Positions 18,901-48,745 of a stretch of 64,000 bases of DNA are shown here, piece by piece. The DNA comes from an uncultured Planctomycetales bacterium. Lineage in GTDB: Bacteria > Omnitrophota > Gorgyraeia > Zapsychrales > Aceulaceae. The notes below the pieces were generated by a model. It was not told where the DNA came from and did not search any database. It saw nothing but the letters and a program-made list of their open reading frames with translations. How positions within the stretch are numbered: the stretch's first letter is position 1; each line of letters begins with the position of its first letter. Location of the stretch: assembly GCA_964648665.1 (NCBI GenBank), contig CAZYOA010000001.1, positions 112,128 to 176,127 of the forward strand, given 5' to 3'. The position numbers were made by a program, and so were the translations under genes.

Positions 18901-21900
18901 CGGAGCCTCTGCTGGTGCTGGTCAGAAGAATTCTTTGGTAAGCACTCTTGGAACTGCTAAAGATATTCAAAGTAATATTAAAAAGCAGATTTTCTTTAAA
19001 AAGAATAGTCTGTCTAAAAAGGTAAAATTGGGTAAAACAGAAGTAGCTGATCCGAAATCTATTCAGACTAAACTTCTTGAAGCGCTGGGTAAAACGCAAA
19101 ACGACACTGAGGATAGTAATCTTGAAAGTGATTGGGTTTATATGTCATTAAAGAATGGTGATTTCGTTGAGATGAAAAAGTCTTCAAAATCTCCCGCTTG
19201 GAAAGTTAGGAAAGAAAATCTTTCTGAGACGGCACGAGAGCAGGTAATGGTTGATCAAGCTCAAAGTATTAAAAATATATTTGAAGATGAAAAGGCAGAA
19301 ATTAATGTGAAAGATGGTTTTGCATTCAATGGTTCTTTGGTGCAAATTTATTCTCCTGCTAACGAACTTACGCTTGTCGCTTATGCTTCGACAGTTAACA
19401 ATGAAGTTGATTCTGCATTTTTGCATAAAGGAAAAATAACTGAGGACATTCCTCTTATCAGAAAGAGTTTTACTCCTAAAAAGATAGAAGCTCCTGCTGT
19501 CGGACTTCCTCTTGGTCCTGAAAAGAAACCACTTGTTGGTGCTAATTTTATTGTTCCAGATATGCATATGACGTTATCTGCAATTCTAAATGCTGCACAA
19601 GTGCGCAAGGCAAGTTCAACATTATCTTTGAAATATCCAGGACCATTTAATGTTAGCAGTTTTGTCGCTCAATTAAAAGCTTCGCTTGAGTTTCCAACCT
19701 ATTTTCTTATTAAAGTTGGCAAGAAAGAATATACAGAAGGTGAACTTTTAAAAGAAGAGTTATCTTTGAAGACTGGTGAAATATTAGAATTAAGTTTTTC
19801 TGAGAATCGTTTTTCAGCTCGGCAGATTAATCTTTCAATACAGAAACAAGATGGTTCTGTATTAATTAGCGCTAAAGCGCTTGCGCAGGTTGGGGAACCT
19901 AGTTTTATTTCTTATCCTAAAATTAATCAACAGGTAGCTAGAATTCTTGATTTCGAAACAGCATTCGATTATCTGCAATCTTTAAAAGCAGTTAACCCTC
20001 CTAGTGGGAGGGCTATATATGATAGGCATGCCGAGGCTTCTAAGAAAGCAACTCAGAATAAGCAAACGAGTTCGAATCTTAATACTAAAAAGTATGAAAT
20101 TAAGGCTCTTAATCATGCGCAATTTCTTGAAATTAAAGAAAAAGCTAAAAAAGGTATTGATATCTTAGGGATTAAAGATTTTAAAAAGGCAACCTGGCTA
20201 GATCTTCTAAAGGCAGTATTTCTTAAAGTTAGCTTTGATGTCTCTGATCGTATATCAAGTAAATTTTATAATCTGAAAGCGCTAGCAGATGGTATATTTA
20301 ATTTTGAATTTTTAGAGAATGACAAAATTGTTGTTGAGGTAAGCGGGGCAAATGATCTTTCGCGAGAATATTCCTTAGGTATTCTTAAAAAAGAGCTTGG
20401 TCTTCAAGATGATCAGATTTTTCTTAAAAAGACATCGAGTTCAAATATGAAGTTGACGCAAAAGTTTATTAATACTTTTCGTCGTGAAGTTTCTGATATT
20501 GATGAGCTTCTCAATTTTAGACGTTTTAAAATCAGTTTATCTAAAGAGCAAGTTGATGGAATTAAAAAGGCTTTGGGTACAGAATCTTTAAAATCTATGG
20601 GAATGATTTCAAGCGGAAAAGATCGTCAGTTAAGCGATGATTTTAATCAACCTACAGGCGAGGATTCTTTTGTTGAGTTTTATGTTGAAACGTCTGATTC
20701 GAAATGGTCTGAGACTGTTATGAAAATAAAGTCTGAAGGTGCTTATCTACGCTTTATGGTTGAGCTTTTTAATAAAAATTCAGATTTAGCGAGAGAAGTT
20801 ATTAAAGATATGCTAAATCAGAAATCTGTTAAATATTTTGAGTTTATGGTTAATTTTATTAAACATTTAGAAAAAAGATTTCCCGATAATAAATTAATGT
20901 TACAGATGAATAGCGCCGAGAAGCTTGAGGGTAGCGCGGGCTTTATAAGCAATAGAAATAAATTTATAAATGGAATCGTTGAAAGAAGTACTATTGGAAT
21001 AAGTTTTGAGCTGAATGATGAAGAATTAATTACAGTTATGTCTGCGCAAGGAGAATACATAGTTACAGAGTATGGTTCTTGGCTTGAGAAGTACGGACTT
21101 CCTAACCTTGTTTACGGTTTGGTTGATTATAATGATGATATGAATCTTAAAAAGAAATCGACTTCAAGTAATATTAAAAAGGATACCAAAGAAATTGCTG
21201 GTGGTTCAAGGCTTGAGAGTACTTTTGATCCCGTAGCAGTAAAGACAACACATCAGTTTAAAAATGGTCTTCATGTCGATTGGACGTTTGAAGAAAAAGG
21301 AGATCACGCATATGATTCATCTGACCAGATTTTTGATAGCAGAGAGGCCGGGATGAAGAAAAGAAAGGGTAGCTCGGTGATGGTGAAGCAAGAGTTTTCT
21401 GTTTCTCGAGCAGGAAAACAAGGTATTTTAGACATGCGAAGTTCAATTAAAAAGAACCCTCGTACTATTGCAGGCAATATTGCAAAAGTCGCAAGGCTAA
21501 AGGATGTTGATCTTAGAGGTCTGGATGATAATTTGTATGGTGATGAATTAGGGTTTTCTTTTAATGGGGGGTCTTTAACAGTTAATTATAGCAAGAGTCT
21601 AGGTAATTCAGCAAAGATTACAGTTCAAGTTAATGAAGGGGAAGAATCAGAAGTCACTATTAATCGCATTTTTGCTGCAACCTGCGAAGTTCTTTCGCTT
21701 TATAAGAGGAGTGCCAGCTCGGCGATGGTGATTAAAATGTATAAAGCAAAAAATCGTGCTAGCAAATGGACTTCTATTGATGATGAAGATGTAAAAGAAG
21801 GAAAAGAAGTATGGTTTGCAGGGCAAATCATTGATAATACGGAGGCTGATGGAGGATGGGAGAGAATTGTTAATTTTAGAAATAAGAGTAGCCTTGTTAT

Positions 21901-23176
21901 TTACAGGGAAAGCGACGGCTTGCTAAGTTTTGTTATTAGTGCTGATAGCGATGATATCCATAAATCTATTTTAGAAGGAGTTATGGATGAGTTTGGCCTC
22001 TTGAAAGAAGAAATTGGTGAAACAGTTCCAAAGAAAGCGGGTTCGAATATTAGTACTATAATGTATCAAGTAAAAGAGCTTAATTCGGATCAGCTGGCTA
22101 TAGTTGTCAATGAGATTAAGGCTGGTTCTCTTTCATTTATTAATCCAAAAAGCCTCGTAATGAGTATTGCTGCGAGATTAAATTTAAAACCAGCCTCAAC
22201 TATAGGCAATAGTTTCGTGACTGACAAAATAATGGATGTAAAAATGAATTTTTGGGATTCAATCGCGGATGGACATCAGAAGGTTAAGATTGCGATCGTT
22301 GATGAAAAGGAATTGCTTATTACGGTTGAAGCTACGGATGATCAAAAGCACAAGCTTCTTTTAGATGCAGTTAAGTCTGAGCTTAGGCTTGATGATGATC
22401 AAATGGATTTAAAAAAGACAGCGAGTTCAGATATTGTGGGGTACAGAAAAGGGCCTGGGGAGGATCAAGGTAAGATTGTTAAGCCGATTGCTCCGGGATT
22501 GCCACAAGGACATCGGACAGTTAGTGGATACAGCAATAGAATTGTTAAGCCTGCGACACCAGGTTTGCCGCAAGAACATCGAACAGCTCTTAAGAAGAAA
22601 TCGAGCTCTCAAGCTATTGTTAAGCAAGTAAATGCGGGTATTGGTAATCAGCTTCGAGGAGAAGATTACACTTCAGAGGAAGCTATGAAATCGGCAGCTC
22701 GAATGTTAGGTTATGAACCTTTTGTTTTCAAAAATTATGGTTTTCAGATTAGGAAAGATGGGGTGTATGTATCTTTTGATCTTGATGAAGGTGTTTATAG
22801 GGCAGTACATGCTGCTACGATTACCGACCAACAGCTTAAGGAAATGGGAGATCCTGATCTAAGAAAAAGGAACGAGAAGGCTTCTTCTAATCTTGGTGGT
22901 ATTAGACTTGATTCTAAATATTTAGATCTTCAAATTAAGAGAGATGGAAAGGGCATTGCTCTTCCAGTTTCAAGCCAACCACTTGAAAGTTTCAATATTC
23001 AAGGGTTTTCATTCTATATCATGAGCATCACCGCTGTTCCAAGTTTACTTTTAATGTCTGGAATTTCGGATTCAGATAGCCGAGAGGCAAGCTTAGATTC
23101 AGAGTTTGATTTGCAGGCTAAGGCTGTAAATCGATTTATAGTAGGCGATTCACGAAGAATGAGCATTCTTGCATAA
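15983..23176 (+). CDS. Giant secreted modular protein 1 (2397 aa): signal peptide, conserved head, ~15 SS[NT][LIM]-delimited modules, conserved tail. Function unknown
   Basis: Uninterrupted 7.2-kb ORF with a strong RBS (AAGGAGAG). The signal peptide ends SYA/QS. Head residues ~37-355 are homologous to the 28872 ORF. It contains internal module families (see repeat features) and a C-terminal SSNLGGIRLDS... tail. Terminator follows at 23198. Confidence 0.9.
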   Translation: MFQRFKNPKQKSLSNIVSIFIIFCFSLSSVAPSYAQSLSVLPAPGTMIMQTPGFSPVLVRALEISPENPLQFGFIVDNGDTGFEGEELTQETKKLIRYFLASLTTPEKDMWVNLSPYEENRIIADNFGETQMGRDLLAQDYILKQLTASLIYPEDELGKKFWDKIYKTAYEKFGTTDIPLNTFNKVWIVPKTAEIYEHDNKVFVINSELEIMMEEDYLSLEKNLNREDLGAKQTNKAEAKSVSAISSEIVREIVIPAITKEVNEGKNFANLRQIYNAMILATWYKKNLKESLLGKVYVDQSKNKGIDLKDKQASQKVYDQYIEAFKKGVYDYIKVESDSKTGRNIPRKYFSGGALAVSSMRNVIPDSNDLAPNGDVVQNYKFELVENANEGEAGPAVISSNMMIQNILSQKTLTREGLHTVLSAIISEAEKDKSFEENERRDLVFIRDDGQKIGLKFLSEMDIKVGKALLGDEMSGKFKEVIVEYKNNGTFFRLLIGTKSPFLTDSFWEVASDNEGQNEALKKAIQNVLGLKKSVRHKIRVSSNLVSQINKKIGTQLPGSLTSEDAQKKACEILERFSPHAVTKTAFDINGNMEFAHFEVVDGFWIAVSGGDFSSMSSGDGVQTTASSTLASVKTIQDIAPLAIELLKNNTTALHVSLLDDGLVSAGYLPYKEFLNNAPEDMEALPLARYIQIDLNFNSMFYDSLITFQIDDEGGVVIHEVSSPKAENQKTIRKIFQGILDGYVGNLPEIQGDGYTGISSSNLKVRINKQIEGDESISPDLSPREAQQKAMEKIEGLQAGALGGNFFDASDKLGDYRFSVIDGFWKVTIVNEKPAKNQIKASNNLNANNIQKISSQKTMNSAATEAERLVKAALNPRIKSLKDFQKVSWSNDLRDSGWTGIDDYMHESYAPWKVKQRLGQLSIEENAVFIDTDNKKIIQAKDILPLFGEVDHPEVYRIFFKDGSRISLLSKGSGASAGAGQKNSLVSTLGTAKDIQSNIKKQIFFKKNSLSKKVKLGKTEVADPKSIQTKLLEALGKTQNDTEDSNLESDWVYMSLKNGDFVEMKKSSKSPAWKVRKENLSETAREQVMVDQAQSIKNIFEDEKAEINVKDGFAFNGSLVQIYSPANELTLVAYASTVNNEVDSAFLHKGKITEDIPLIRKSFTPKKIEAPAVGLPLGPEKKPLVGANFIVPDMHMTLSAILNAAQVRKASSTLSLKYPGPFNVSSFVAQLKASLEFPTYFLIKVGKKEYTEGELLKEELSLKTGEILELSFSENRFSARQINLSIQKQDGSVLISAKALAQVGEPSFISYPKINQQVARILDFETAFDYLQSLKAVNPPSGRAIYDRHAEASKKATQNKQTSSNLNTKKYEIKALNHAQFLEIKEKAKKGIDILGIKDFKKATWLDLLKAVFLKVSFDVSDRISSKFYNLKALADGIFNFEFLENDKIVVEVSGANDLSREYSLGILKKELGLQDDQIFLKKTSSSNMKLTQKFINTFRREVSDIDELLNFRRFKISLSKEQVDGIKKALGTESLKSMGMISSGKDRQLSDDFNQPTGEDSFVEFYVETSDSKWSETVMKIKSEGAYLRFMVELFNKNSDLAREVIKDMLNQKSVKYFEFMVNFIKHLEKRFPDNKLMLQMNSAEKLEGSAGFISNRNKFINGIVERSTIGISFELNDEELITVMSAQGEYIVTEYGSWLEKYGLPNLVYGLVDYNDDMNLKKKSTSSNIKKDTKEIAGGSRLESTFDPVAVKTTHQFKNGLHVDWTFEEKGDHAYDSSDQIFDSREAGMKKRKGSSVMVKQEFSVSRAGKQGILDMRSSIKKNPRTIAGNIAKVARLKDVDLRGLDDNLYGDELGFSFNGGSLTVNYSKSLGNSAKITVQVNEGEESEVTINRIFAATCEVLSLYKRSASSAMVIKMYKAKNRASKWTSIDDEDVKEGKEVWFAGQIIDNTEADGGWERIVNFRNKSSLVIYRESDGLLSFVISADSDDIHKSILEGVMDEFGLLKEEIGETVPKKAGSNISTIMYQVKELNSDQLAIVVNEIKAGSLSFINPKSLVMSIAARLNLKPASTIGNSFVTDKIMDVKMNFWDSIADGHQKVKIAIVDEKELLITVEATDDQKHKLLLDAVKSELRLDDDQMDLKKTASSDIVGYRKGPGEDQGKIVKPIAPGLPQGHRTVSGYSNRIVKPATPGLPQEHRTALKKKSSSQAIVKQVNAGIGNQLRGEDYTSEEAMKSAARMLGYEPFVFKNYGFQIRKDGVYVSFDLDEGVYRAVHAATITDQQLKEMGDPDLRKRNEKASSNLGGIRLDSKYLDLQIKRDGKGIALPVSSQPLESFNIQGFSFYIMSITAVPSLLLMSGISDSDSREASLDSEFDLQAKAVNRFIVGDSRRMSILA
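17603..17812 (+). repeat. Giant protein 1, module family A, copy 1 (protein-level repeat)
   Basis: VSSNLVSQINKKIGTQLPGSLTSEDAQKKACEILERF....FEVVDGFWIAV aligns with copies at 18254 and 22601 (SSN-x-INK.IG...S.E(E/D)A..KA....L.....F.V.DGFW.V). Confidence 0.7.
18254..18472 (+). repeat. Giant protein 1, module family A, copy 2
   Basis: ISSSNLKVRINKQIEGDESISPDLSPREAQQKAMEKIEGL....YRFSVIDGFWKVTIV. Confidence 0.7.
20069..20446 (+). repeat. Giant protein 1, module family B, copy 1
   Basis: SSNLNTKKYEIKALNHAQFLEIKEKAKKG ... KIVVEVSGANDLSREYSLGILKKELGLQDDQIFLKKTSSSN aligns end to end with the copy at 22037. Confidence 0.7.
22037..22432 (+). repeat. Giant protein 1, module family B, copy 2
   Basis: GSNISTIMYQVKELNSDQLAIVVNEIKAG ... 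ELLITVEATDDQKHKLLLDAVKSELRLDDDQMDLKKTASSD. Confidence 0.7.
22472..22585 (+). repeat. Two copies of a Pro-rich ~16-aa motif, 6 aa apart, inside giant protein 1
   Basis: KIVKPIAPGLPQGHRT (res 2164-2179) and RIVKPATPGLPQEHRT (res 2186-2201). The nucleotide copies are diverged at synonymous sites. Confidence 0.8.
22601..22807 (+). repeat. Giant protein 1, module family A, copy 3 (more diverged)
   Basis: SSSQAIVKQVNAGIGNQLRGEDYTSEEAMKSAARMLGY....VSFDLDEGVYRAV. Confidence 0.55.
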
Positions 23177-28871: not shown

Positions 28872-31800
28872 ATGGTTCAGAAAATTAAATCAAAAAAACT
28901 AAATAGTTTCTTTAGGGCAACAGCTTTATGTGTGCTTATTTCTTTTACGCAGACATCGGTTGCTCCTATGGGCTTAACAAGTGTTTATGCTCAGCAGTCT
29001 TTGCTTGGATTGCCAGCACCTGGGGCAAGTGTGCCTTTGACGCCTAGTTTTGAGCCGATTACGCTTATTGGGCTAAAGGTTTACCCTGAAAATCCATTTC
29101 AAGTGGATTTTGTTGTTGATAGTGGCGACTCTGCGCTTTCTGATGATAATTTTGAAAGTGAATCAGAAAAGCTTATTAAGTATTTTTTATCTGCGTTAAC
29201 TATTCCTGAAAAAGATCTTTGGGTTAATCTTTCACCTCATGAAGAAAATCGAATTATTTCATCCAATTTTGGTCAGACTGAAATGGGAAGAGACTTGTTG
29301 GCGCAAGATTATATCTTAAAGCAAATTACGGCTTCTTTGATTTATCCAGAGAATGATCTTGGAAAACAATTTTGGAATCGCGTTTATAGCCAGGCCTACG
29401 AGAAATATGGGACAACAGATATTCCTATCGATACATTTAATAAAGTTTGGATTGTTCCTAAAAAGGCTGTTATTTATGAAAATGAAAATAAAGTTTTTGT
29501 TGCTGATAGTGAGCTTGAAGTTATGTTGGAGCAAGATTATTTAGCTCTTGAGAATGTAAATAATAAGGATATTAATAGTCAAGAGAACAGCTCGCTTGCA
29601 TCAAACATTGTGAGAGATATTGTAATTCCACAACTTCAAAAAGAAGTGAATCAAGGTGTAAACTTTGCACAATTAAGGCAAATTTATAATGCAGTTATTT
29701 TGGCGGCATGGTTTAAGGAGAACTTAAGAAATTTTGTTTTGACTCGTAATTATGCTGATCAAAGTAAAATCTTAGGCGTTGATGTTAAAGATAAGCAAAT
29801 TTCTGAAAAGATTTATCAAAGATATTTAGATGCATTTAAAAAGGGTGTTTGCAATTTTGTTAAAGTTGAATATAGCGAGCATGATCAAAAAAATATTCCA
29901 CGAAGATATTTTTCTGGTGGAACGGATTTGGCGGTTTCATCGTCGGGAATTCTTGAAAAAACAAAACAATCCTCTTCTGTGATTCCAAAAGGAAATTGTG
30001 CTGTAATTAAGCAAAAATTTATTGTATCTTCACAGCTAAATACTAGAAATGCACGTAGTTCGGATGAGCCTTTTTCAAGTCTTTTGAAAGAGAATTTTGA
30101 TGACAATTTGCCAATTTTAAAGAATATTTTGCGCAATATTAATATGAATTTTGCAGAAAGCGAAAAAGATCTCTTAAATCTTTCTAAATTTGTTTCTGTA
30201 AGGGAAGTTACTGATGAGCTAATCAAGATGCTAGACAAGCACGGAGGCGTGAAGAAAGAAATAGATCTTAGGGATTTTGGTTTTGAAACATCTGTTGGCA
30301 GTGTGAAGCTTCAAGAAAATGGTGTTATTTCTATTGTTCATCCGCTGTTTAGCGATAGCGCGATTAATATTCAAAGCTATCCAATTGTTATTTTTGCAAA
30401 GAATGTTGCCGATTCTGTTTATGAGCAAACACGAATTCGTCTTTGGATCAATTTTTTTAGAGAACGTGAGCGACATTCAGGTATAGCCATTCAAGATGGA
30501 CTTTTTGCTCAAACAATTAGGTTTTGGATTGAAGGTGCAGGTATTCTTGGTAAAAAACGATTGGAAGTTGTTGATGATCGAATAAAAGAATATAGAACGA
30601 GTGCATTTGAATTTCACGCAAAATGTGTTGCGGCGCAAGAAGCTTTTCTAGGGATTAAAGCTAGCAGGTCCTCTCTGGCGAATGGGAGTAGAGATATCGA
30701 TTTTGAATATGATGATGCTTCCGTTGTTGATGCGGCGCTAGAGGTTTCTCCATCGGATATGGATAAATTTTCTCATAATCAATTGCTCGAGAAATTTGTT
30801 TATTTGTCTAAAATGTTACGGGGTAAGAATATAGAGCAAATGGATTTTTCTACTTCTCGCAACGGAGAGCCCATGTGGATGGACTTTCGAACAGAAGAAG
30901 CTGCTGAAAAAAATCTCGAATGGTTCAAGGTCTTTCTTGCTCAAGTTCTTGAAAAAGAAGGGCATAACGAAAAAATTTCTCCATATAAAAGCTATTTTTT
31001 CTTAAAAGGGCAAAGTGGTAATAATCTAAACGGCAAAACATTTTTTACGCCACGAAAGATTCCGCTTACGATTGATAAGAAGCTTTTAAAAAATTTTGTA
31101 AGAAAATATAAAGAAAAGTATTCTAGTCAGAATGAAGATAAAGATCTTACCGATATAGATGAAGATGCTTTAAAAATGTTTTATGTTCTTTCTTTGTGGG
31201 TTGATCGAACAATTGAAGTTTTTGAGAAAGAAAAAGTTGTTGTAAGGAGAGACCGTTTTGTTGTTGATAAAGAGAAATTTTTAAGCGGGAGTGCTTATTC
31301 AAAAGATTTTTCGTCTTTTGTTAGCGAAAATTCAGAGAAGAATATTTTTATTAATCTTGATGGAACAATTGCTATTTTCGATAATCGTGGAGGAAAAAAA
31401 AGCTACTTATTTCAACCGAATGCTGATGAAATTTTTGATGAGCTTAAGACGCTAAAAGATAGTGGATTTAATATTATTCTTTGGAGTTCGAATCGGGAGT
31501 GGTTTATTCGTCATAATTTTGTTCGCCAGCCTGACAATGAAAAATGGGTAGATCTTTTTGATTTAATTATTACGCAAGAAAATTATAAGTCGCCAACGGA
31601 TGAAGAGCTTGCAGAAGCTTATTCAGAAGAAGAATTTAGTGATGCACAAAAGCTTTATGAAAATTTTAATTCTTTAAAAGATGTTTCAATGTTTGGTCCT
31701 TTGAGTCGCATTATTTTAAGCTCGCAACCTATGTATTTCGAACAGGGCACGCCTATTGAATCTAGGATTGAAGGTCAAACTTTTGTTACCGGGTATACTA

Positions 31801-34800
31801 GGGCAGGCGTTTCTGGCATGGCCAATAAGATTTTAGATGAAGTCTCAAAAGAAGAAAAAAAGATTAATAAAAAAAGACAAGGTGAAGAAGAGATAAAGTT
31901 TAACGAGCATCGAAAAAAAGAGTTATCAAGTTTTTCTCCTGGATATAGTCAGGAAATAAATGCTTCGCTTGAAATTATAAGTCTTATTTTTAAACACTTC
32001 GATAAAGATAATGCTCTTTTTGATAAATTTTTAAATATGTTTGATCTAAGCGGTCCAGAGGATGAGGATTATAGATGGGCTATGAATTTCTTTATTAAAT
32101 CAATGGCTTTGCATATTAAGAATTTTTCTATTCGATCTGAAATTACTTTGGATGAATATATAGAGATGTTTAGGGATGCTATCAAAAAAGGCCTCAAAGA
32201 TATTTCTCGAGATCAAAAAGAAGAGACTAAGGCGATCTTAGAATTAGTTAAAGACATGCTTTCTGGAAAGGTTATCGCTGATAAGATGAAGCCGGCAGAG
32301 ACTCGTGGTAGAAATTATGGAGCTTCTGATGTTGGATATTTCTTTGGATCTGAGCATTGGACTGAAGATGCAAAAGTTTTTTGGAAAAAGACTATTTCGC
32401 AGCGTTGGGAAAAGTTTGAAGAAACTAGTGATCCAAAAGAATTATTCTTACAATCAAGTCATCTTGTTGGTCATAAAGGAAAGCTGGCTTATTCTGAGGC
32501 ATTTATTATTAATGAAGCTTTGCGGAAGATTTATTCTGAAAAGAATTTAAGAGGTGAATATAAGAGTTTTGAAGAATGGAAGGCGAAATGGAATATTCGT
32601 ATTCATTGCTTTGAAACAAATTTAACAGATCTGCAGGATGCGTATTGGGGAGTTCCTATAACACAAAAAGAATATCTAAAGACACCAAATAAAACTCTTT
32701 TTCAATATGTAAAAGATGAAAATCTTTATTATCCAAAAGAAGAATATCGAGAGTGGATTCAATTTCTTCATTTAGACCCAAATAATCTTGAACAAATGCG
32801 ATTGTTTGACGCGCTTGAAGATGATGCGCGCTCGTTTATTTATGTTCTTCATAATTCTTCTGATTCAATACATGCGGGAAAGATGATAAATGCGATGATT
32901 TCTCAAAAAGAGGGCTCATCGTTAAAAAGATTTTTAGTTGGGAATACGTTCTTTTATATTGGAAAGAATTCTGGCAATGAAGTGTTTTCTCTCGAGATCG
33001 GAGATGGTTCAAAAACGCTTTTTAAGAGCGCGAAAACGCTGAAGGGTCAATTAATTCAGAATCTTAACGATAATGGAGGAAAGCTGTCTAACGTTCCGAA
33101 GTATTGGGCATTGATGGCTTTATTTTTTCTCGGTACAGAAGAGGATCTTGCCTTGGTTGAAAAAATTAATAAATCTGTTGAGCCAGCGCTGAAAAATCGT
33201 ATGACTAATGAAGTTGATTTAGATGCGATAAAAGGGATACGCCTTATTTCTTATTATATTGCTGCTTCTCTTAAAGGAGAGAGTTTAGAGAATGCAAATC
33301 TTGATTTAATTCCAAGTGATCTTCGAAAGGCTGATGTTGTTGTGTTGCGAAAATCTTTTCCAAGTTTTGAAAAAGGCGACCGTTTTGATGGGGTTGATTT
33401 ACCTCTTCTGCTTTTATCAGGACATATTTCTTTTGGTGTTGCGGATATGATTATACAGAACGAGCCAAATGTTGCGATGAGTAAGCATGCTTATGAAACA
33501 TATAAAGCGCTGTATAAGCTTATACATGATAAGGCCATTGAAGATAAGATTATTGATATTGCTCCTTTTCCAGCAGAAGGTTATCTTGAGGCACAAAAAA
33601 AGCTTTCTAATAGTTTTTCAAAGCTTATTAAGATGATCGCTTCTATTGATGCAGAAAGCATAAATGGTACATTTATTTCTGATTTAATTGTACAGTTTTT
33701 TGATAAAGTTTCTTTATCAGCAGATGTTATGAGCATGAAGCAAAAATATCTTATTAAGCAAGTCCAAGACTATAGAAAAGAATATTTTGATAAACATAAA
33801 GAATTTCCTATTGTTTATATTGTTAAGAATGATGATTATGAACATTCGGATATTGTTATCGAGCGAAACGATAGCGAGGAAACGATTGTTAAGAAGATTT
33901 TAGGTGAGAGTTCTTTGCCTGTTTTTGGTCTTAATGGTTTGTTGGCTCAGAATTTTGTTTTTCAAGAAATTGAAACGAGTGATTTGAATCTTGATAATGT
34001 TAAAGAAAAGCTTACCCCAGCGTTAGCCTTTGAAATTTTAAATACTTTACCTTTTCAGGGTGAGCGAACTGCTCGAGGTATTGAACTTTTAAATTCTATT
34101 GCCGAGCAAATTAATACAGATGAGAAATTTAAGAATTTGATTAAAGAGATTGGAATTTATCGATCGCTTTTTCACGAAGGGTTACGTTCAGGAATACAGA
34201 AGTGGATTGTTGATAATGATTATGCTAGCAAAGATGATTTAGAGCTTGTTTTTGGACCAATAAACTTTAGAAATGATCAGCATCCATATTTTGATTCTAA
34301 AAATATTGAAGTCCACGATGTTTTATCGGATGAAGCAATATCAAAGAATGTTTTGCTTGATTATGAATTTTTATCTGCTGAAAAAAGAATTGTTTATCAA
34401 AGAACAAATAAAGGGTTGGTGCGATTTGAATTTTCTTCAGACAGTCTTGTTGCGAAGTATGCTCTTGATAAAACAGCAAAAATTCGAAAATGGAAAGAAG
34501 AAGCCGTTGAGCTGAGTATTGTGGCGCGAAGGATTAAGGAGGCGATAGTAAATACTGAGCCTGGATCGCAATTAGATAATTTAAAGAGACAGAGAGAAAA
34601 TTTAAATAATATTTTAAAAGAACTGATCGAAGTTCGTAATAATTCTTATGCGGCTTTGACGCAAGAAATTAATAATCGCGCTTTATCTTTAAATAAAGAA
34701 TTTGGTGATGAGTTAAAGAATTCAAAGGTTTCAACGAAAATTAATTTTTATATTATGCAAAGTCAAATTGAAAATAATCCAGAAACAAAAGATTATCTCA

Positions 34801-36311
34801 GAGCTATGGTTGATGGTGTTCTTAATGCATATCCATTAGTGCAAATATCAATTGTGAGTATTGGGTCGGTTGAGCCTTTACGGCTTAAAGCCGATGAACG
34901 TATTACGCAAATTGTTGTTGATTCTGAAAAGGAGATTGAAGAGCTTTTAAAAAATGAACAAGATGTTCATGTGGGTGTTAATTATAAAGATTTTCATATG
35001 ATTGCAAATTCTGAAAGAGATATCATTACGTATCTGCCTCAACATGTTCATGAGATTGAAGGCCCGAGTGTTTGGTATCATCAGATGAAAGCTTGGACAG
35101 ACATGGCAAGTCCGTTTGGAACAGTTCCTTTTGATAGTATGCTCTTTGGCAACAAGCAAAAACGAGACATGATGACTCAAGCAGAGCTCGCATCTGCGCG
35201 CCAAACATGGGATGCGCAGAATTTAACCAAGGAACAAAGAGATGCTGTGCAAAAATTAAGTCAATATGGAGAAAAATGGTATTCTGATATTTCGATTAAA
35301 TCTTTTGCTGAATTTTATGATCCTCAACATTTTCTTGCTGAAATGGACAATCTGATTTTTGCGCTCAAAGAAGGATATATTCAAGATTTGTTTGTTCAGA
35401 AATTTAAGAAGAAAAATAAGATAAGAAATGGAAATCAGATTATCATTCATCTTCAAGCGAAAGATACAGATATCATTAAAGAGCTCGTTGATAAAGGGTT
35501 TTCTGTTATTGATCAAAAAGGTATTATTCATAATAAGGGACAAGAATATCCTGTGACCGTTATTCTGCAGGATTTTATTAAGCCAGCAGCAATAAAAATA
35601 TTGATGTCAAAGCTTTGTGGAACTTGTTTGAAGAGAAAAAATAAGAAATTGAAAACAACTGAAAACGAGGAAGGTGAGTTTTTTGTTGATTTTCCAATTT
35701 GCATTAAAGCCTCAAATTGGTTAAATTCTATTGCTGGTAGAAATTTAGCTATTTTTGATAATTCTAAGCTTGACGGAATGGAAAATGTGATTTTAGCGAC
35801 TCTTAAGAAACAGTTTATGGTGCAATATGCTGATCAGAATAAAGTTGAATTGGCAGAGAAAAAAGCTGTTGTTGCCTTAGAGGATTGCTTGATGGGAGGG
35901 AAAAGTGCTGGTGAAGAAGATGCGAAAGAGTTTGGAGATGAATTTGCGTTCTCAAAATATTATGATTTAGAGTCACAAACAGTACAAAAAAATTTTTATA
36001 CATCTGTGATGTTATTTTTTGATTTGAACGATGATATTTTAGCTGAGATTGATGAGCGAATTCACGATGATGAGCTTATTGCTGAAGACCCAAAAGAAGA
36101 GACTCTTCAAAATAAATCAAGTAGCAATATTGGAGGTATTAGTTTGAAATCAAGCGCAGAGGTGCTTCAGCGGCACGGACAGGCCTCTAATTTTGATACC
36201 TTGAACCAGTCTGTGGATATTCATTGGGCGAACATTCCAGGCCTTACTCCTGTTATTTTAAGCATTGTTCCGATTTCAGATTTTCATGGATTTGTTTTGA
36301 GTGTTAGGTAG
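28872..36311 (+). CDS. Giant secreted protein 2 (2479 aa): signal peptide, conserved head, unique ~2050-aa middle including an FCP1/HAD-like module, conserved tail. Function unknown
   Basis: Uninterrupted 7.4-kb ORF. The signal peptide ends VYA/QQ. Head residues ~41-350 are homologous to giant 1. The tail is KSSSNIGGISLKS...NIPGLTPVILSIVPI. No clear SD before the ATG, so the exact start is less certain than the ORF itself. Confidence 0.9.
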   Translation: MVQKIKSKKLNSFFRATALCVLISFTQTSVAPMGLTSVYAQQSLLGLPAPGASVPLTPSFEPITLIGLKVYPENPFQVDFVVDSGDSALSDDNFESESEKLIKYFLSALTIPEKDLWVNLSPHEENRIISSNFGQTEMGRDLLAQDYILKQITASLIYPENDLGKQFWNRVYSQAYEKYGTTDIPIDTFNKVWIVPKKAVIYENENKVFVADSELEVMLEQDYLALENVNNKDINSQENSSLASNIVRDIVIPQLQKEVNQGVNFAQLRQIYNAVILAAWFKENLRNFVLTRNYADQSKILGVDVKDKQISEKIYQRYLDAFKKGVCNFVKVEYSEHDQKNIPRRYFSGGTDLAVSSSGILEKTKQSSSVIPKGNCAVIKQKFIVSSQLNTRNARSSDEPFSSLLKENFDDNLPILKNILRNINMNFAESEKDLLNLSKFVSVREVTDELIKMLDKHGGVKKEIDLRDFGFETSVGSVKLQENGVISIVHPLFSDSAINIQSYPIVIFAKNVADSVYEQTRIRLWINFFRERERHSGIAIQDGLFAQTIRFWIEGAGILGKKRLEVVDDRIKEYRTSAFEFHAKCVAAQEAFLGIKASRSSLANGSRDIDFEYDDASVVDAALEVSPSDMDKFSHNQLLEKFVYLSKMLRGKNIEQMDFSTSRNGEPMWMDFRTEEAAEKNLEWFKVFLAQVLEKEGHNEKISPYKSYFFLKGQSGNNLNGKTFFTPRKIPLTIDKKLLKNFVRKYKEKYSSQNEDKDLTDIDEDALKMFYVLSLWVDRTIEVFEKEKVVVRRDRFVVDKEKFLSGSAYSKDFSSFVSENSEKNIFINLDGTIAIFDNRGGKKSYLFQPNADEIFDELKTLKDSGFNIILWSSNREWFIRHNFVRQPDNEKWVDLFDLIITQENYKSPTDEELAEAYSEEEFSDAQKLYENFNSLKDVSMFGPLSRIILSSQPMYFEQGTPIESRIEGQTFVTGYTRAGVSGMANKILDEVSKEEKKINKKRQGEEEIKFNEHRKKELSSFSPGYSQEINASLEIISLIFKHFDKDNALFDKFLNMFDLSGPEDEDYRWAMNFFIKSMALHIKNFSIRSEITLDEYIEMFRDAIKKGLKDISRDQKEETKAILELVKDMLSGKVIADKMKPAETRGRNYGASDVGYFFGSEHWTEDAKVFWKKTISQRWEKFEETSDPKELFLQSSHLVGHKGKLAYSEAFIINEALRKIYSEKNLRGEYKSFEEWKAKWNIRIHCFETNLTDLQDAYWGVPITQKEYLKTPNKTLFQYVKDENLYYPKEEYREWIQFLHLDPNNLEQMRLFDALEDDARSFIYVLHNSSDSIHAGKMINAMISQKEGSSLKRFLVGNTFFYIGKNSGNEVFSLEIGDGSKTLFKSAKTLKGQLIQNLNDNGGKLSNVPKYWALMALFFLGTEEDLALVEKINKSVEPALKNRMTNEVDLDAIKGIRLISYYIAASLKGESLENANLDLIPSDLRKADVVVLRKSFPSFEKGDRFDGVDLPLLLLSGHISFGVADMIIQNEPNVAMSKHAYETYKALYKLIHDKAIEDKIIDIAPFPAEGYLEAQKKLSNSFSKLIKMIASIDAESINGTFISDLIVQFFDKVSLSADVMSMKQKYLIKQVQDYRKEYFDKHKEFPIVYIVKNDDYEHSDIVIERNDSEETIVKKILGESSLPVFGLNGLLAQNFVFQEIETSDLNLDNVKEKLTPALAFEILNTLPFQGERTARGIELLNSIAEQINTDEKFKNLIKEIGIYRSLFHEGLRSGIQKWIVDNDYASKDDLELVFGPINFRNDQHPYFDSKNIEVHDVLSDEAISKNVLLDYEFLSAEKRIVYQRTNKGLVRFEFSSDSLVAKYALDKTAKIRKWKEEAVELSIVARRIKEAIVNTEPGSQLDNLKRQRENLNNILKELIEVRNNSYAALTQEINNRALSLNKEFGDELKNSKVSTKINFYIMQSQIENNPETKDYLRAMVDGVLNAYPLVQISIVSIGSVEPLRLKADERITQIVVDSEKEIEELLKNEQDVHVGVNYKDFHMIANSERDIITYLPQHVHEIEGPSVWYHQMKAWTDMASPFGTVPFDSMLFGNKQKRDMMTQAELASARQTWDAQNLTKEQRDAVQKLSQYGEKWYSDISIKSFAEFYDPQHFLAEMDNLIFALKEGYIQDLFVQKFKKKNKIRNGNQIIIHLQAKDTDIIKELVDKGFSVIDQKGIIHNKGQEYPVTVILQDFIKPAAIKILMSKLCGTCLKRKNKKLKTTENEEGEFFVDFPICIKASNWLNSIAGRNLAIFDNSKLDGMENVILATLKKQFMVQYADQNKVELAEKKAVVALEDCLMGGKSAGEEDAKEFGDEFAFSKYYDLESQTVQKNFYTSVMLFFDLNDDILAEIDERIHDDELIAEDPKEETLQNKSSSNIGGISLKSSAEVLQRHGQASNFDTLNQSVDIHWANIPGLTPVILSIVPISDFHGFVLSVR

Positions 36312-43998: not shown

Positions 43999-44280
43999 AT
44001 GATTGAGAATTTGGACGAAGGCCGATATGATTTGCTTCAATCTGAGCAAGAAAAAGACTGGGAAAGTAGATGTTTTCATTGTGGCGCATGTTGTGGAACT
44101 AAAGATGGAGATCCTTGTGAGCATTTGCACATGAGTAAGGAGGGAACGTCTCGTTGTGATATTTATAAAAATCGCTTTGGACTTCACAAGACAAAAAGTG
44201 GGCGCGAATTTAGGTGTGTTCCTATCAGAGATATTCTTCACAAAAATTGGCCAGGGGATCACCGGTGTGCATATAAATAA
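43999..44280 (+). CDS. YkgJ-family (CxxCxxCC) cysteine-cluster protein
   Basis: 93 aa containing CFHCGACCG plus further Cys/His residues. Confidence 0.6.
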   Translation: MIENLDEGRYDLLQSEQEKDWESRCFHCGACCGTKDGDPCEHLHMSKEGTSRCDIYKNRFGLHKTKSGREFRCVPIRDILHKNWPGDHRCAYK

Positions 44281-45225: not shown

Positions 45226-47112
45226 ATGCTTAAAAAACTCAAATTAAGACCTAAGTTTTTCCTTTCTCTTGTTGGTATTTCAATCATTCCTCTGGTTTTT
45301 ATTAGTTTGTTCAATTATTTTCATACAAAAGTTGAGCTCAAAGAAAGTACAGTCGCAAATCTTAGAGTAATTAATGATTCGCGCGTAGCTCATATTAATC
45401 AGTTTATTCAATTACGTCAGGAGCAGGCTAAAGAGCTTGCAGGAACGTATGTTATTCGTCAGATTGATCCGCAGGGTGCCAATACGCCAAGAACGGTTCA
45501 AACTCTTCAAAATGATATTGAGTCTATTTATTCGGAAATCAAGAAAACGCCGCGTAGTGATTATCAGGATATTGATGTTTCTTCATCTATTTCTAATATT
45601 AGTGTTTGGGATATTCATGGCAATATTATTGCTAATACAAATCGTTTGCTCATCGGTAGAAAGATGCCGTTTAAGTTTTTGAATATTTTATATAGCAAAG
45701 GAACATATTTTTTAGGATTTGAAAAAGATTCATTAACGAATGAAAAGTTTTTAACAATTTTAGAAGGTGTTCGAAATTGGCAAACTGGAGAATATTCTGG
45801 TGTAGTTTTTTTAAAAAGTCATGCTAATGTGCTTGATGAGATTACAGCTTCGCGAAAAGGTTTGGGAAAAACAGGTGAGACGTATATTGTGAATCGATCA
45901 GGTCTCATGATTACAGAATCAAGATTTGTTAAAGATGCAATTTTAAACTTAAATGTAAAAACAGAAGCTATAGATTTTTGTTTTTCTGGAACTGAGAAAG
46001 ATCCTCCTGAAGTTTATAAAAATTATAAAGGAGAGATTGTTTTAGGTGTTCAGAAATATTTGCCAGATCAGAAGTGGTGTGTCGTGACAGAGATTTCAGC
46101 AGAAGAAGCTTTTGACCCTGTAACGGCATTTCGTAATCGTATTTTTGTTGTTTCAGGATGTTTAATTCTTTTAATTTTATTCTTAGTTCATGTTGCAGGT
46201 CTTGCTTTTGTGCGTCCAATTTTACAAATTCGTGATGCTTCGTTTAAAGTTGCGCGTGGAAACTATGAGGTAACAACAAGTGTTGATAGTGAAGATGAAC
46301 TTTTTGATCTTTCTCGTTCTTTTAATCAAATGACCAAGGTTTTAGGAAGTACAACTGCACAGCTAAAAGAAAAGAATGTAATTTTAGAAAAGCAGAAAGA
46401 AGAGCTTAAGAAATTAAATGAATTAAAATCTGAATTTGTTTCGATGGTTTCTCATGAGTTAAGAACTCCGATGGCAATTATTAAGGGTAGTCTTTCTCAA
46501 TTGGGTGATGAAACGCTTGAAAATACAAAAGAGATTAAAAGTCGTCTAATAACGATTTCGCTTAAAAATATTAAACGCTTAACGGAGATGATTAATAACT
46601 TATTAGATTTGTCAAAAATTGAGGCAGGCAAGATTGAATTGAATCGACAAAATGTTAATGTCGTTAGTGTTCTTAAAGAAGTTTGCCAAGCTTTTGAGAT
46701 TAAGGCTAAAGAAAGTAAAATTGAAATCCGATATCGTGCTTCAAGTGATGAGATTAACGCTTGTATCGATCGTGATAAAATTATTCAGGTTTTTATTAAT
46801 TTAGTTGGCAATGCCATTAAGTTTACAGCAAAAGGATTTATTGAAGTTTCAGCAGAAGATAAAGAGGATCATGTTTTGTGTATGGTTGAAGATTCTGGTC
46901 CTGGAATTTCAAAAGAAGATCTTCAAAAAGTTTTTGGAAAATTCCAGCAATTTGGCCATAAGGCTGTAAGCGATCCATCTATAAAAGGTACAGGGCTTGG
47001 TCTTTCGATTTCTAAGGGGCTGGTTGAACTCCACGGGGGAACAATTTGGCTTGAAAGTGAAGTTGGCGTCGGGACTAAGTTTATGTTTATCTTTCCTAAA
47101 GAAGTATCCTAA
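45226..47112 (+). CDS. Sensor histidine kinase with periplasmic Cache-like sensor, HAMP, HisKA and HATPase domains
   Basis: Two TM segments flank a ~270-aa extracytoplasmic region. H-box SHELRTPM. N, G1 and G2 boxes (NLVGNAIKFT, DSGPGI, GTGLGLSI). Confidence 0.9.
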   Translation: MLKKLKLRPKFFLSLVGISIIPLVFISLFNYFHTKVELKESTVANLRVINDSRVAHINQFIQLRQEQAKELAGTYVIRQIDPQGANTPRTVQTLQNDIESIYSEIKKTPRSDYQDIDVSSSISNISVWDIHGNIIANTNRLLIGRKMPFKFLNILYSKGTYFLGFEKDSLTNEKFLTILEGVRNWQTGEYSGVVFLKSHANVLDEITASRKGLGKTGETYIVNRSGLMITESRFVKDAILNLNVKTEAIDFCFSGTEKDPPEVYKNYKGEIVLGVQKYLPDQKWCVVTEISAEEAFDPVTAFRNRIFVVSGCLILLILFLVHVAGLAFVRPILQIRDASFKVARGNYEVTTSVDSEDELFDLSRSFNQMTKVLGSTTAQLKEKNVILEKQKEELKKLNELKSEFVSMVSHELRTPMAIIKGSLSQLGDETLENTKEIKSRLITISLKNIKRLTEMINNLLDLSKIEAGKIELNRQNVNVVSVLKEVCQAFEIKAKESKIEIRYRASSDEINACIDRDKIIQVFINLVGNAIKFTAKGFIEVSAEDKEDHVLCMVEDSGPGISKEDLQKVFGKFQQFGHKAVSDPSIKGTGLGLSISKGLVELHGGTIWLESEVGVGTKFMFIFPKEVS

Positions 47113-47147
47113 TATTTAAAAGTTTTGTATAGATATATTTTTTAATC

Positions 47148-47177
47148 TTGACATACCCCCTGGGGGTATGCTATATT
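47148..47177 (+). promoter_or_regulatory. Promoter (TTGACA-18-TATATT, extended -10) with an embedded perfect palindromic CsoR-type operator ATACCCCC-T-GGGGGTAT
   Basis: TTGACA at 47148-47153. The 17-nt palindrome at 47153-47169 fills the spacer. TGCTATATT at 47169-47177. csoR starts at 47198. Confidence 0.65.
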
Positions 47178-47197
47178 TAAGTTGAAAGGAGAAAAAA

Positions 47198-47488
47198 ATG
47201 AAAAATAATTACCCTTGTCATAAAAGTAATCTCGTATCTTTAAAGAGAGTTGAAGGACAAGTTCGAGGTGTTCAGAGAATGATTGAGGAGAAAAAGTACT
47301 GTGTGGATATTCTTATCCAGGTTAATGCTGCGATCGGAGCTCTTGTGCGTGTTCAGGATAAAATTTTAGAAAAACATTTGCGAGGGTGTGTTGCAAAAGC
47401 GGTTATGGGAAAATCAAGCTTAGAAAAAGAAAAAAAATTAGAAGAAGTTTTTGGTTTAATCAGTCGATTTAGAAAAGGGTATAAATAA
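47198..47488 (+). CDS. csoR: CsoR/RcnR-family metal-sensing transcriptional repressor (Cu(I)-type C-H-C fingerprint)
   Basis: 96 aa. L.R..GQ.RG...M pattern. Ligand spacing C-x24-H-x3-C (YCVDIL ... KHLRGC) matches the Cu-sensing CsoR arrangement. Confidence 0.8.
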   Translation: MKNNYPCHKSNLVSLKRVEGQVRGVQRMIEEKKYCVDILIQVNAAIGALVRVQDKILEKHLRGCVAKAVMGKSSLEKEKKLEEVFGLISRFRKGYK

Positions 47489-47497
47489 GGAGGAATC

Positions 47498-47683
47498 ATG
47501 GGAATAAAATTATTTGTTTTAACTTTGGTTGTGTTTTCAGTTTTGTGTGGAGTTACTGTATTAAAGGCAGAAGCTAAAACATGTTGTCTAAAAAAGGCAT
47601 GTGATTGTGTTGTAGCTGAAAAAGATTGTGGATGTCAAAGCAAGATGCCATGTAAAGGGTGTGAATGTAGCAAAGCCAAATAA
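47498..47683 (+). CDS. Secreted Cys-rich metallothionein-like mini-protein
   Basis: 61 aa with a GGAGG RBS. Signal peptide MGIKLFVLTLVVFSVLCGVTVLKAEA. Predicted mature 35 aa has 9 Cys in CC/CxC/CxxC arrangements (KTCCLKKACDCVVAEKDCGCQSKMPCKGCECSKAK). Lies 9 nt after csoR. Confidence 0.6.
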   Translation: MGIKLFVLTLVVFSVLCGVTVLKAEAKTCCLKKACDCVVAEKDCGCQSKMPCKGCECSKAK

Positions 47684-47707
47684 GTTGTTTTAAGCATTTC
47701 TTAGGAT

Positions 47708-47735
47708 GGGCAGCTACGAGGCTTTGTAGCTGCCC
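47708..47735 (+). terminator. 10-bp perfect hairpin after the csoR operon (probable terminator, weak T tract)
   Basis: GGGCAGCTAC (47708-47717) pairs with GTAGCTGCCC (47726-47735), 8-nt loop, followed by ATATCTTATATT. Confidence 0.5.
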
Positions 47736-47797
47736 ATATCTTATATTATATTTTTCTTGTAAAAGAAAAAAGAATATAGATAATATAAGGATAATTA

Positions 47798-48745
47798 ATG
47801 GAGGATTATCTAATGGACGATCTTGTTTCAAGTATTGCTAAGCTAAAGAAAGAACGTAACGCTGTTATTTTGGTTCACAATTATCAGTTGCCGGAAGTTC
47901 AGGATGTTGCTGATTTTACAGGGGATTCTTTAGGGTTAAGCATAGAAGCTTCTAATACAAGTGCAGATGTCATTGTTTTCTGTGGCGTTCATTTTATGGC
48001 TGAGACTGCTAAGATTTTATCTCCGCAAAAAACTGTGTTGATTCCTGACTCAAGCGCTGGATGTCCTATGGCCGATATGATTACGCGTGATCAGCTTAAG
48101 GATTTAAAGAAGCAGCATCCTAATGCTAAAACGATTTGTTATGTGAACACATCTGCCGATGTAAAAGCTGAGTGTGATTATTGCTGCACATCAGCGAATG
48201 CTGTTGAAATGCTTGAAAAAGCTTTTGACGAAAATGATGAAATTTTGTTTGTTCCTGATAAGTATCTTGCTTCTTATGCTGCGTCAAGAACAAAACGTCA
48301 AGTTATTATTTGGCAAGGATACTGTCCGACGCATGCAAAAATATTGCCAGAATATATCCTTGAAATAAAAAAAGATCATCCTGATGCAAAAGTTATGGTT
48401 CACCCTGAGTGCACGGGACCTGTTATTCAGCTAGCTGATGAAGTTCTTTCGACATCAGGCATGTTACGTTATGCTAAAAAATCAAACGCAAAAGAATTTA
48501 TTGTTGGAACTGAAGTGGAGATGATTTATCCTCTTTCTAAGCAAAATCCAGAGAAGAAGTTTTATCCTATTACGGATTTAGCTGTATGCCCAAATATGAA
48601 AAAGACAAACCTTCAAAAGCTTGAGATATCTTTAAAGAATATGGTTCATGAAGTTGTTTTATCCCCCGAGATTATAAGTCAGGCGAAGAAACCAATCGAA
48701 AATATGATTAAATTTAGAGATCAGGCTCAGTTGACAAAAAAATGA
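47798..48745 (+). CDS. nadA: Quinolinate synthase
   Basis: AVILVHNYQ, FCGVHFMAET, and conserved Cys ligands (GCPMA, YCPTH..., VCPNM). The alternative start at 47813 follows GGAGG. Confidence 0.9.
   Translation: MEDYLMDDLVSSIAKLKKERNAVILVHNYQLPEVQDVADFTGDSLGLSIEASNTSADVIVFCGVHFMAETAKILSPQKTVLIPDSSAGCPMADMITRDQLKDLKKQHPNAKTICYVNTSADVKAECDYCCTSANAVEMLEKAFDENDEILFVPDKYLASYAASRTKRQVIIWQGYCPTHAKILPEYILEIKKDHPDAKVMVHPECTGPVIQLADEVLSTSGMLRYAKKSNAKEFIVGTEVEMIYPLSKQNPEKKFYPITDLAVCPNMKKTNLQKLEISLKNMVHEVVLSPEIISQAKKPIENMIKFRDQAQLTKK

Follow-up and report, generated by a model that had tools for sequence, protein, structure and literature searches.

What might a CsoR-family repressor govern when the gene that follows it encodes neither a pump nor a chaperone, but a very small Cys-rich protein? 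The question is raised by a two-gene unit in a 64-kb stretch of contig CAZYOA010000001.1 from an uncultured bacterium (this whole stretch is called the window below). Here a csoR gene is followed by a 61-aa open reading frame (ORF) whose product combines a predicted signal peptide with a Cys-rich tail, and the two genes appear to share one promoter and one terminator-like hairpin. We consider it fairly probable that this is a Cu(I)-derepressed, autoregulated unit that exports an unmodified metallothionein-like peptide, which would serve as a periplasmic copper buffer.

A csoR gene and a Cys-rich mini-ORF in one unit

A preliminary description of the locus had listed a near-consensus promoter whose spacer is filled by a perfect 17-nt palindrome, a regulator with the Cu(I)-type C-x24-H-x3-C ligand spacing, a 61-aa ORF with a GGAGG-type ribosome-binding site (RBS), a signal peptide-like start and a 35-aa tail with nine Cys, the lack of a copA/copZ-type gene, and a closing 10-bp hairpin (47708–47735). 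We read all of these elements again in the window. The promoter and its palindrome stand, while the spacer measures 18 nt rather than 17; the hairpin is present and extends further than described, over 13–14 pairs (Table 1).

The small ORF occupies positions 47498–47683 of the forward strand, its ATG at 47498 lying after a 9-nt gap from the csoR stop codon, and encodes MGIKLFVLTLVVFSVLCGVTVLKAEA followed by KTCCLKKACDCVVAEKDCGCQSKMPCKGCECSKAK. The core of the predicted signal peptide has a mean Kyte–Doolittle hydropathy of 3.0 over 12 residues. By the same kind of heuristic reading, an n/h/c layout and a small-x-small motif are present in all eight family members, though the sequence drifts. 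The predicted mature peptide of 35 residues contains 9 Cys (26%), no aromatic residue and no His, and has a net charge of +4. Cys accounts for 1.05% of residues in the long ORFs of the window, and the binomial probability of a nine-Cys tail is 9e-11. A lipoprotein was considered and rejected, as V-L-C17-G does not fit a lipobox and the orthologues have Tyr or Phe in place of C17.

Two orthologues of the peptide, P0002 (74% identity) and P0006 (~50%), and no further relatives were recovered by a word-indexed search and a full phmmer search of 1.84 billion representatives. Both lie in the gene order kinase–csoR–ORF–nadA, with the same promoter, operator and terminator as in the window, and in both the 9 Cys are invariant, together with the motifs E-K-D-C-G-C and P-C-x-G-C-E-C. 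The ratio of nonsynonymous to synonymous substitution (dN/dS, omega) between the window and L004 is 0.17 in the mature part and 0.73 in the signal part; the drifting signal part retains a basic N-terminus, a hydrophobic core of at least 12 residues and the small-x-small motif. Against L005, synonymous sites of the mature part are saturated (pS = 0.76; pN = 0.22), and at five to six of the nine Cys positions TGT has been exchanged for TGC or the reverse. The small ORF thus passed the check on conservation and coding signature that the preliminary description had called for.

These data also bear on whether the small ORF is a chance, untranslated reading frame. It is unannotated in databases and matches nothing in Pfam or NCBIfam, it is uncalled in L006 (751–942) and L101 (1263–1409), and an overlapping Ala/Val-rich frame is called instead in L090 (4307–4474; 41 aa) and L096 (817–1044; 58 aa). 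However, the frame, its length, its RBS and every Cys are kept across lineages with saturated synonymous sites, and the chance probability of the Cys content is that given above, so that we regard a chance frame as effectively refuted. Few database proteins of this kind exist because gene callers skip the ORF or pick the wrong frame, and the family is probably larger than databases show.

The promoter reaches 11 of 12 in the promoter scan, with a TG extension of the -10 element. Its -35 hexamer in related loci is TTGACA, TTGCAT or TTAACA. The operator arms are ATACCCCC-T-GGGGGTAT, and a G/C tract lies between ATAC and GTAT (ATAC-CCCCTGGGG-GTAT). The palindrome occurs once in the window, even when up to 3 mismatches are allowed, with a chance expectation of 0.01. 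Across nine related csoR promoters, CATAC...GGGGTATG is invariant and always located at the same position in the promoter spacer, as part of a common promoter/operator block, TTGACATACCCC(N1-3)GGGGTATG(C/T)TAT. A G/C tract with ATAC/GTAT flanks defines the type-I class of CsoR/RcnR operators (PMC5146963), and the window operator, by its sequence, appears to be of this design, conserved in nine loci. The likeness to CsoR operators drawn in the preliminary description is thereby borne out. Because the operator is inside the promoter spacer, repression by occlusion and autoregulation are predicted.

Family membership of the 96-aa regulator is clear, with a PF02583 score of 87.5 bits against a cutoff of 22.8 (E = 8e-25, residues 10–88). 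NCBIfam places it closest to the copper sensor RicR, below the equivalog cutoff, and its best PDB matches are the Cu(I) sensors 4M1P (Geobacillus, GtCsoR) and 4ADZ (Streptomyces lividans, SlCsoR). The residues Y34-C35, H60 and C64, in the spacing C35-x24-H60-x3-C64, align with the copper ligands of both structures, and csoR dN/dS is 0.03 (window vs L004). The fingerprint x-C-H-C belongs to Cu(I)-sensing repressors of the BsCsoR type, as compared with x-C-N-C in CstR, H-C-H-H in RcnR and P-C-H-x in FrmR (PMC11672702), and the window CsoR carries the x-C-H-C set in its sequence. The assignment to the CsoR family and to its Cu(I) type by these ligands is supported, and the regulator would be expected to respond to copper. 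His8 is conserved across the CsoR clade, and Cys7 is also present in the window, P0007 and P0024. At the Cys7-His8 codons (47216–47221), the N-terminus of the subclade reads P-C-H, and that of most relatives P-D/S-H.

Recurrence of the pairing and its genomic setting

The preliminary description had proposed to look for homologues of the 61-aa ORF after csoR genes in relatives, and such homologues were found. Seven CsoR lineages of the same clade, at 60–77% identity to the window CsoR, were sampled, and in five of them csoR is followed by a Cys-rich mini-ORF with predicted export (Table 1). At 62–69% CsoR identity, the mini-ORFs are other forms with 6, 9 or 15 Cys. As the preliminary description suggested, the window unit has no cargo besides a Cys-rich peptide with predicted export, and the same is true of four further CsoR lineages, each unit being closed by a terminator. 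The csoR genes of L088 and L102 share the promoter/operator design, though their cargo differs.

The mini-ORFs have in common a CC start, a C-x-G-C-x-C-S end, the promoter/operator and the terminator. Their distance from csoR is 21 nt in L090 and 9–18 nt in the other four lineages, with an RBS in each, and a terminator hairpin directly follows wherever downstream sequence was read (L090, L091, L094 and L101). In an alignment of the two, each of the short form's nine Cys pairs with one of the 15 in the long form, which contains in addition a 17-residue insert with 6 Cys. Between two long forms synonymous sites are saturated; all 15 Cys are kept and 10 of their 15 codons have switched, while omega is 0.06 among close long-form variants. 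Over eight members, the tails measure 24–52 aa and contain 23–29% Cys in CC and CxC motifs, without Phe, Trp or Tyr. A filter for a signal-peptide-like N-terminus and at least 6 Cys at a content of at least 15% picked the csoR-linked mini-ORFs and no other ORFs, and yielded no mini-ORF in 80 control nadA loci (796 kb).

The genes that flank the unit vary by lineage and include nadA, a formyl-transferase-domain (purU-like) gene, a rubrerythrin-like gene, a hemerythrin gene and a convergent ORF without assigned function, which leaves csoR as the sole constant partner of the mini-ORF.

Searches of Pfam, NCBIfam and PDB sequences with the short and long forms gave nothing significant. At E <= 10, neither Pfam nor NCBIfam returned a known metallothionein family, and none was among the PDB hits. 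A five-member profile search added only variants and one frameshifted copy; the peptide profile gave no confirmed match in genome contigs and one already known locus in metagenomes, and tblastn against 72,556 plasmids gave no match. AlphaFold2, run on a five-sequence alignment, predicts one helix at residues 2–23 and a disordered tail with a predicted local distance difference test score (pLDDT) below 50. Such a tail may be compatible with a metal-dependent fold, as in apo-metallothionein, and is weak evidence for one.

Table 1. Positions of the elements of the two-gene unit in the window, and the genes that follow csoR in the seven sampled CsoR lineages.
Feature	Position or locus	Strand	Basis or remark
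-35 hexamer TTGACA	47148..47153	+	Read from sequence; promoter scan
Operator palindrome	47153..47169	none	Perfect 17-nt ATACCCCCTGGGGGTAT, centre T47161, in promoter spacer
Extended -10 element TGcTATATT	47169..47177	+	Promoter scan; kept in relatives
csoR RBS AAGGAG	47186..47191		
csoR, 96-aa CsoR-family repressor	47198..47488	+	PF02583; Y34-C35, H60, C64; stop TAA at 47486-47488
Small-ORF RBS AGGAGG	47488..47493	+	Read from sequence; overlaps csoR stop
Predicted Sec signal peptide, 26 aa	47498..47575	+	Hydropathy, heuristics; K4, hydrophobic core residues 5-22, A-E-A
Predicted mature 35-aa Cys-rich peptide KTCCLKKACDCVVAEKDCGCQSKMPCKGCECSKAK and stop codon	47576..47683	+	Predicted cleavage after A-E-A
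Terminator-like hairpin ending the two-gene unit	47706..47737	+	13-14 pairs, -26.7 kcal/mol, z = -4.6
CsoR of window, P0002, P0007	window, L004, L005		Followed by 9-Cys form
CsoR P0018	L090		Followed by different 9-Cys form, GSCCEKPACTCPAGTDCAGTGCQCGCHGGGCGK
CsoR P0035 (Omnitrophica metagenome-assembled genome)	L092		Followed by 15-Cys form, ...KCCSKEVCKCSKGTCCENGVCKCPSAECCKNGKCICGDGKTCKGCKCS
CsoR P0011	L094		Followed by 15-Cys form of the L092 design
CsoR P0017	L101		Followed by 6-Cys form, ...VCACDPCTCAPKCTCS
CsoR P0024	L088 (4340-8285)		Followed by cusCBA-like resistance-nodulation-division (RND) pump (OEP/CusB/RND)
CsoR P0022	L102 (3303-4961)		Followed by two exported proteins (339 aa, 209 aa) without family assignment

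In the window, the terminator-like hairpin has a weak U-tract, AUCUUAUAUU, and between the window and L005 it shows a compensatory change from A-U to G-C. The downstream neighbour of the unit is nadA (Pfam E = 3e-121), and the upstream neighbour encodes a dCache/HAMP histidine kinase. Neither the P-type ATPase motif DKTGT nor an MxCxxC protein was found in any long ORF of the window, in agreement with the lack of a copA/copZ-type gene in the unit. A link to the upstream two-component system was rejected, since the same kinase and nadA flank different genes in Candidatus Aceula meridiana. A search of Rfam with positions 46900–48000 returned sub-threshold noise only. The region upstream of nadA (47738–47797), TTGTAAAAGAAAAnAGAATATAGATAATATAAGGATA, is almost invariant among the window, L004 and L005, with neighbouring synonymous sites near saturation; it matches no Rfam family and is probably a promoter plus a regulator site.

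The nearest named genome, judged by NadA (74% identity), is that of Candidatus Aceula meridiana, a member of the Omnitrophota, and two CsoR or peptide relatives are labelled Candidatus Omnitrophica. The Omnitrophota are uncultured and mostly ultra-small, and many are predicted anaerobes (PMC10066038). Elsewhere in the window, a conserved 93-aa ORF with 8 Cys (43999–44280; …CFHCGACCGTKDGDPCEH…), also called in L001, has no significant Pfam match and may encode a small metal- or cluster-binding protein. Two giant ORFs with hydrophobic N-termini, at 15983–23176 (2397 aa) and 28872–36311 (2479 aa), fit reports of very long proteins in Omnitrophota.

Proposed copper buffering and competing explanations

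If the unit works as a copper buffer, its cycle would run as follows. At low cytosolic Cu(I), a CsoR tetramer would occupy the ATAC-C5-T-G5-GTAT operator and block RNA polymerase. A rise in Cu(I), bound at C35/H60'/C64', would release the repressor, and csoR and the mini-gene would be transcribed as one mRNA ending at the hairpin, giving more repressor and more mini-protein. The very hydrophobic signal peptide would lead the mini-protein to Sec while it is still unfolded and metal-free, and signal peptidase I would cut after A-E-A, leaving the 35-residue peptide in the periplasm. There its nine thiols would gather Cu(I) into thiolate clusters, and perhaps also take up Ag(I) or further thiophilic metals, capturing the metal before it meets envelope targets or re-enters the cytoplasm. 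Copper specificity, export with cleavage and metal binding are predicted here from sequence features, which also place the mini-protein within the operational definition of a metallothionein, i.e., low mass, ~20–30% Cys in CC and CxC motifs and no aromatic residues. A copper sponge appears to be a well-supported function for it.

Several points weigh against copper buffering. Thiols would form disulfides in an oxidising periplasm, and the predicted export and cleavage rest on heuristics. The metal selectivity of CsoR-family proteins is not readable from sequence with certainty, and His8, together with Cys7 in the window subclade, could be a fourth ligand by analogy with the Ni sensor InrS; in an ungapped register it is N3 that falls at the W position of RcnR/InrS, and His8 is nevertheless clade-wide. 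Damaged copies of the mini-gene also exist. In L091 (4300–4524) the frame is interrupted by an in-frame TAG (CC*NG), where the otherwise identical L092/L093 has GAG, and in L098 (21–263) and L099 (13–255), annotated as Omnitrophica FJZ08_03950, a 1-nt deletion follows the signal peptide and the first Cys is lost. These damaged copies indicate that selection is not universal and that the mini-gene is dispensable in some populations. Finally, Candidatus Aceula meridiana has no csoR-peptide cassette between the orthologous kinase and nadA; five other genes (Yip1-like, pilin-like, exported, Rrf2-type regulator and 4Fe-4S protein) stand there instead (L008, 2570–5962), so that the unit behaves as a movable cassette. 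As an observation on the damaged copies themselves, those of L091 and L098/L099 are of the 15-Cys form.

The repressor might instead sense a signal other than copper, be it Ni/Co, an electrophile or oxidant, or reactive sulfur such as persulfide. The peptide would then take up or carry the sensed species in the periplasm, for instance by transporting polysulfide or by being consumed as a thiol buffer. No group of the CsoR superfamily is larger than that of the candidate persulfide sensors, and the W-X-Y-Z fingerprint is not fully predictive (PMC11672702); an extra ligand or reactive side chain could be supplied by the conserved His8 and Cys7, and several related loci have oxidative-stress neighbours (rubrerythrin, desulfoferrodoxin, glutaredoxin and Msr). 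We nevertheless judge a non-copper signal unlikely. Characterised CstR proteins have x-C-N-C or x-C-x-C without His, whereas Y34-C35, H60 and C64 are all present here and have their counterparts in Cu(I)-bound GtCsoR; the close relative P0024, which shares the N-P-C-H N-terminus, precedes a cusCBA-like copper/silver RND pump; and no sulfurtransferase, persulfide dioxygenase or sulfide:quinone oxidoreductase (SQR) gene is linked to the unit. Modification of the Cys residues was also considered, that is, whether the mini-protein is the precursor of a ribosomally synthesised and post-translationally modified peptide (RiPP), bufferin-like or of the radical-SAM Cys-rich type, altered by unlinked enzymes before or after Sec export. 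Bufferins are indeed Sec-exported, Cys-bearing periplasmic copper binders (PMC11626156), and a search with the 48-aa member brings up a family of radical-SAM-modified Cys-rich RiPPs, weakly and without significance (E = 0.22). In the five genomic contexts, however, no MNIO/DUF692, DUF2063, DoxX or radical-SAM gene adjoins or is linked to the unit, which rejects the variant with an adjacent maturase. In addition, the mini-protein carries no DUF2282 or other Pfam signature, and csoR is its sole conserved neighbour, each unit having its own terminator. An RiPP precursor therefore seems improbable to us.

We give similarly little credence to the idea that the peptide, secreted or anchored in the membrane, is knotted by disulfides and has a role unrelated to metals, as a toxin, signal or envelope component, its link to csoR being accidental or a matter of regulation only. 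Disulfides do stabilise many Cys-rich mini-proteins that are secreted, the Omnitrophota have been proposed to be predatory or host-dependent (PMC10066038), and the best, non-significant PDB matches of the mini-protein (E = 0.07) are a segment of phospholipase A2. On the other side, the numbers of Cys, 9 and 15, are odd and do not vary, the CC/CxC spacing is typical of metal–thiolate clusters and poor for structural disulfides, aromatic or other hydrophobic core residues are lacking, and the pairing with a metal sensor recurs where all other neighbours differ.

Known copper systems and the place of the csoR-linked peptides

Bacterial metallothioneins are regarded as rare and cytosolic, and the known periplasmic copper buffers are either folded (CueP, CusF and Csp1) or enzymatically modified (bufferins). 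The unit in the window resembles the CsoR operons of B. subtilis, Geobacillus and S. lividans in its PF02583 repressor, the x-C-H-C ligands with a preceding Tyr, the ATAC/GTAT operator overlapping the promoter and the position of the repressor gene first in the operon. It differs from them in its cargo, which is one Cys-rich mini-protein in place of a CopA P1B-ATPase, a CopZ chaperone or a pump, in the (C)H at the N-terminus of the repressor, and in its Omnitrophota host. The cytosolic metallothioneins SmtA and BmtA are likewise small and Cys-rich with CxC motifs, but they have a zinc-finger-like fold, His ligands, aromatic residues and SmtB/ArsR-type control, and no sequence similarity to them was detected.

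By analogy, the RicR–MymT system of M. tuberculosis (PMC3944814) is the nearest conceptual relative, as a CsoR paralogue that controls a metallothionein: there too a CsoR-family repressor acts through a palindromic operator on a very small Cys-rich Cu(I) binder, along with further small ORFs. Compared by description, MymT is cytoplasmic, encoded at a separate locus and confined to pathogenic mycobacteria (PMC3944814), while the window peptide has a predicted signal peptide and lies beside its repressor gene. A precedent for the regulatory logic is offered by CueR–CueP of Salmonella (PMC2919089), in which a cytosolic copper sensor induces a periplasmic copper binder that is important under anoxia and replaces the missing Cus pump; CueR is, however, an activator of the MerR type, and CueP, at ~19.5 kDa, is folded and has one Cys/His site, unlike a poly-thiolate mini-peptide.

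Two families of exported copper binders come close in other respects. Bufferins (PMC11626156) share the Sec signal peptide, assigned here by heuristics, the Cys-bearing core and the periplasmic chelation of copper that is proposed here. They are 60–100 aa long with 4, 6 or 12 Cys, from which adjacent MNIO (DUF692) and DUF2063 proteins make thiooxazoles, and they have their own Pfam signatures; the csoR-linked mini-proteins have neither these partner genes in the five contexts nor a DUF2282 or BUF_6/12Cys signature. Csp1 (PMC7558416) is also an exported, Cys-lined, high-capacity Cu(I) store, but it is exported by the twin-arginine translocation (Tat) pathway and forms tetramers of a rigid four-helix bundle of ~120 aa. 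The peptides described here are of the Sec type, 24–52 aa long and predicted to be disordered without metal; that of the window has no twin-arginine motif, a mature part of 35 aa and no helix predicted past the signal peptide.

Our literature searches turned up no protein of this sort in which CsoR, a metallothionein and a signal peptide come together, nor any account of metallothioneins in Omnitrophota. Sequence evidence supports the view that the csoR-linked mini-ORFs are a conserved, unannotated family in an uncultured phylum, one that would combine CsoR copper defence, a periplasmic buffer and metallothionein traits. More tentatively, they could form an exported, unmodified Sec metallothionein family of modular design with 6, 9 or 15 Cys, each member tied to its own CsoR, which has been missed by gene callers and which, in the ultra-small and mostly anaerobic Omnitrophota, is the chief or sole defence against copper under CsoR control; we hold this wider proposal at somewhat short of an even chance.

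Automated annotation systematically misses mini-genes of this kind. Chemical synthesis is feasible for peptides of such length, so the hypothesis is directly testable despite the uncultured hosts, and the peptides could serve as compact metal-binding tags. If the proposed function is true, copper would here be buffered in a third way, by a plain poly-thiolate peptide that Sec exports and a cytosolic Cu(I) sensor switches on, and at the very low cost of two genes and ~550 bp. Such a system would suit streamlined anaerobes, in which Cu(I) is dominant, the oxygen-dependent CueO would be useless and thiols would stay reduced.

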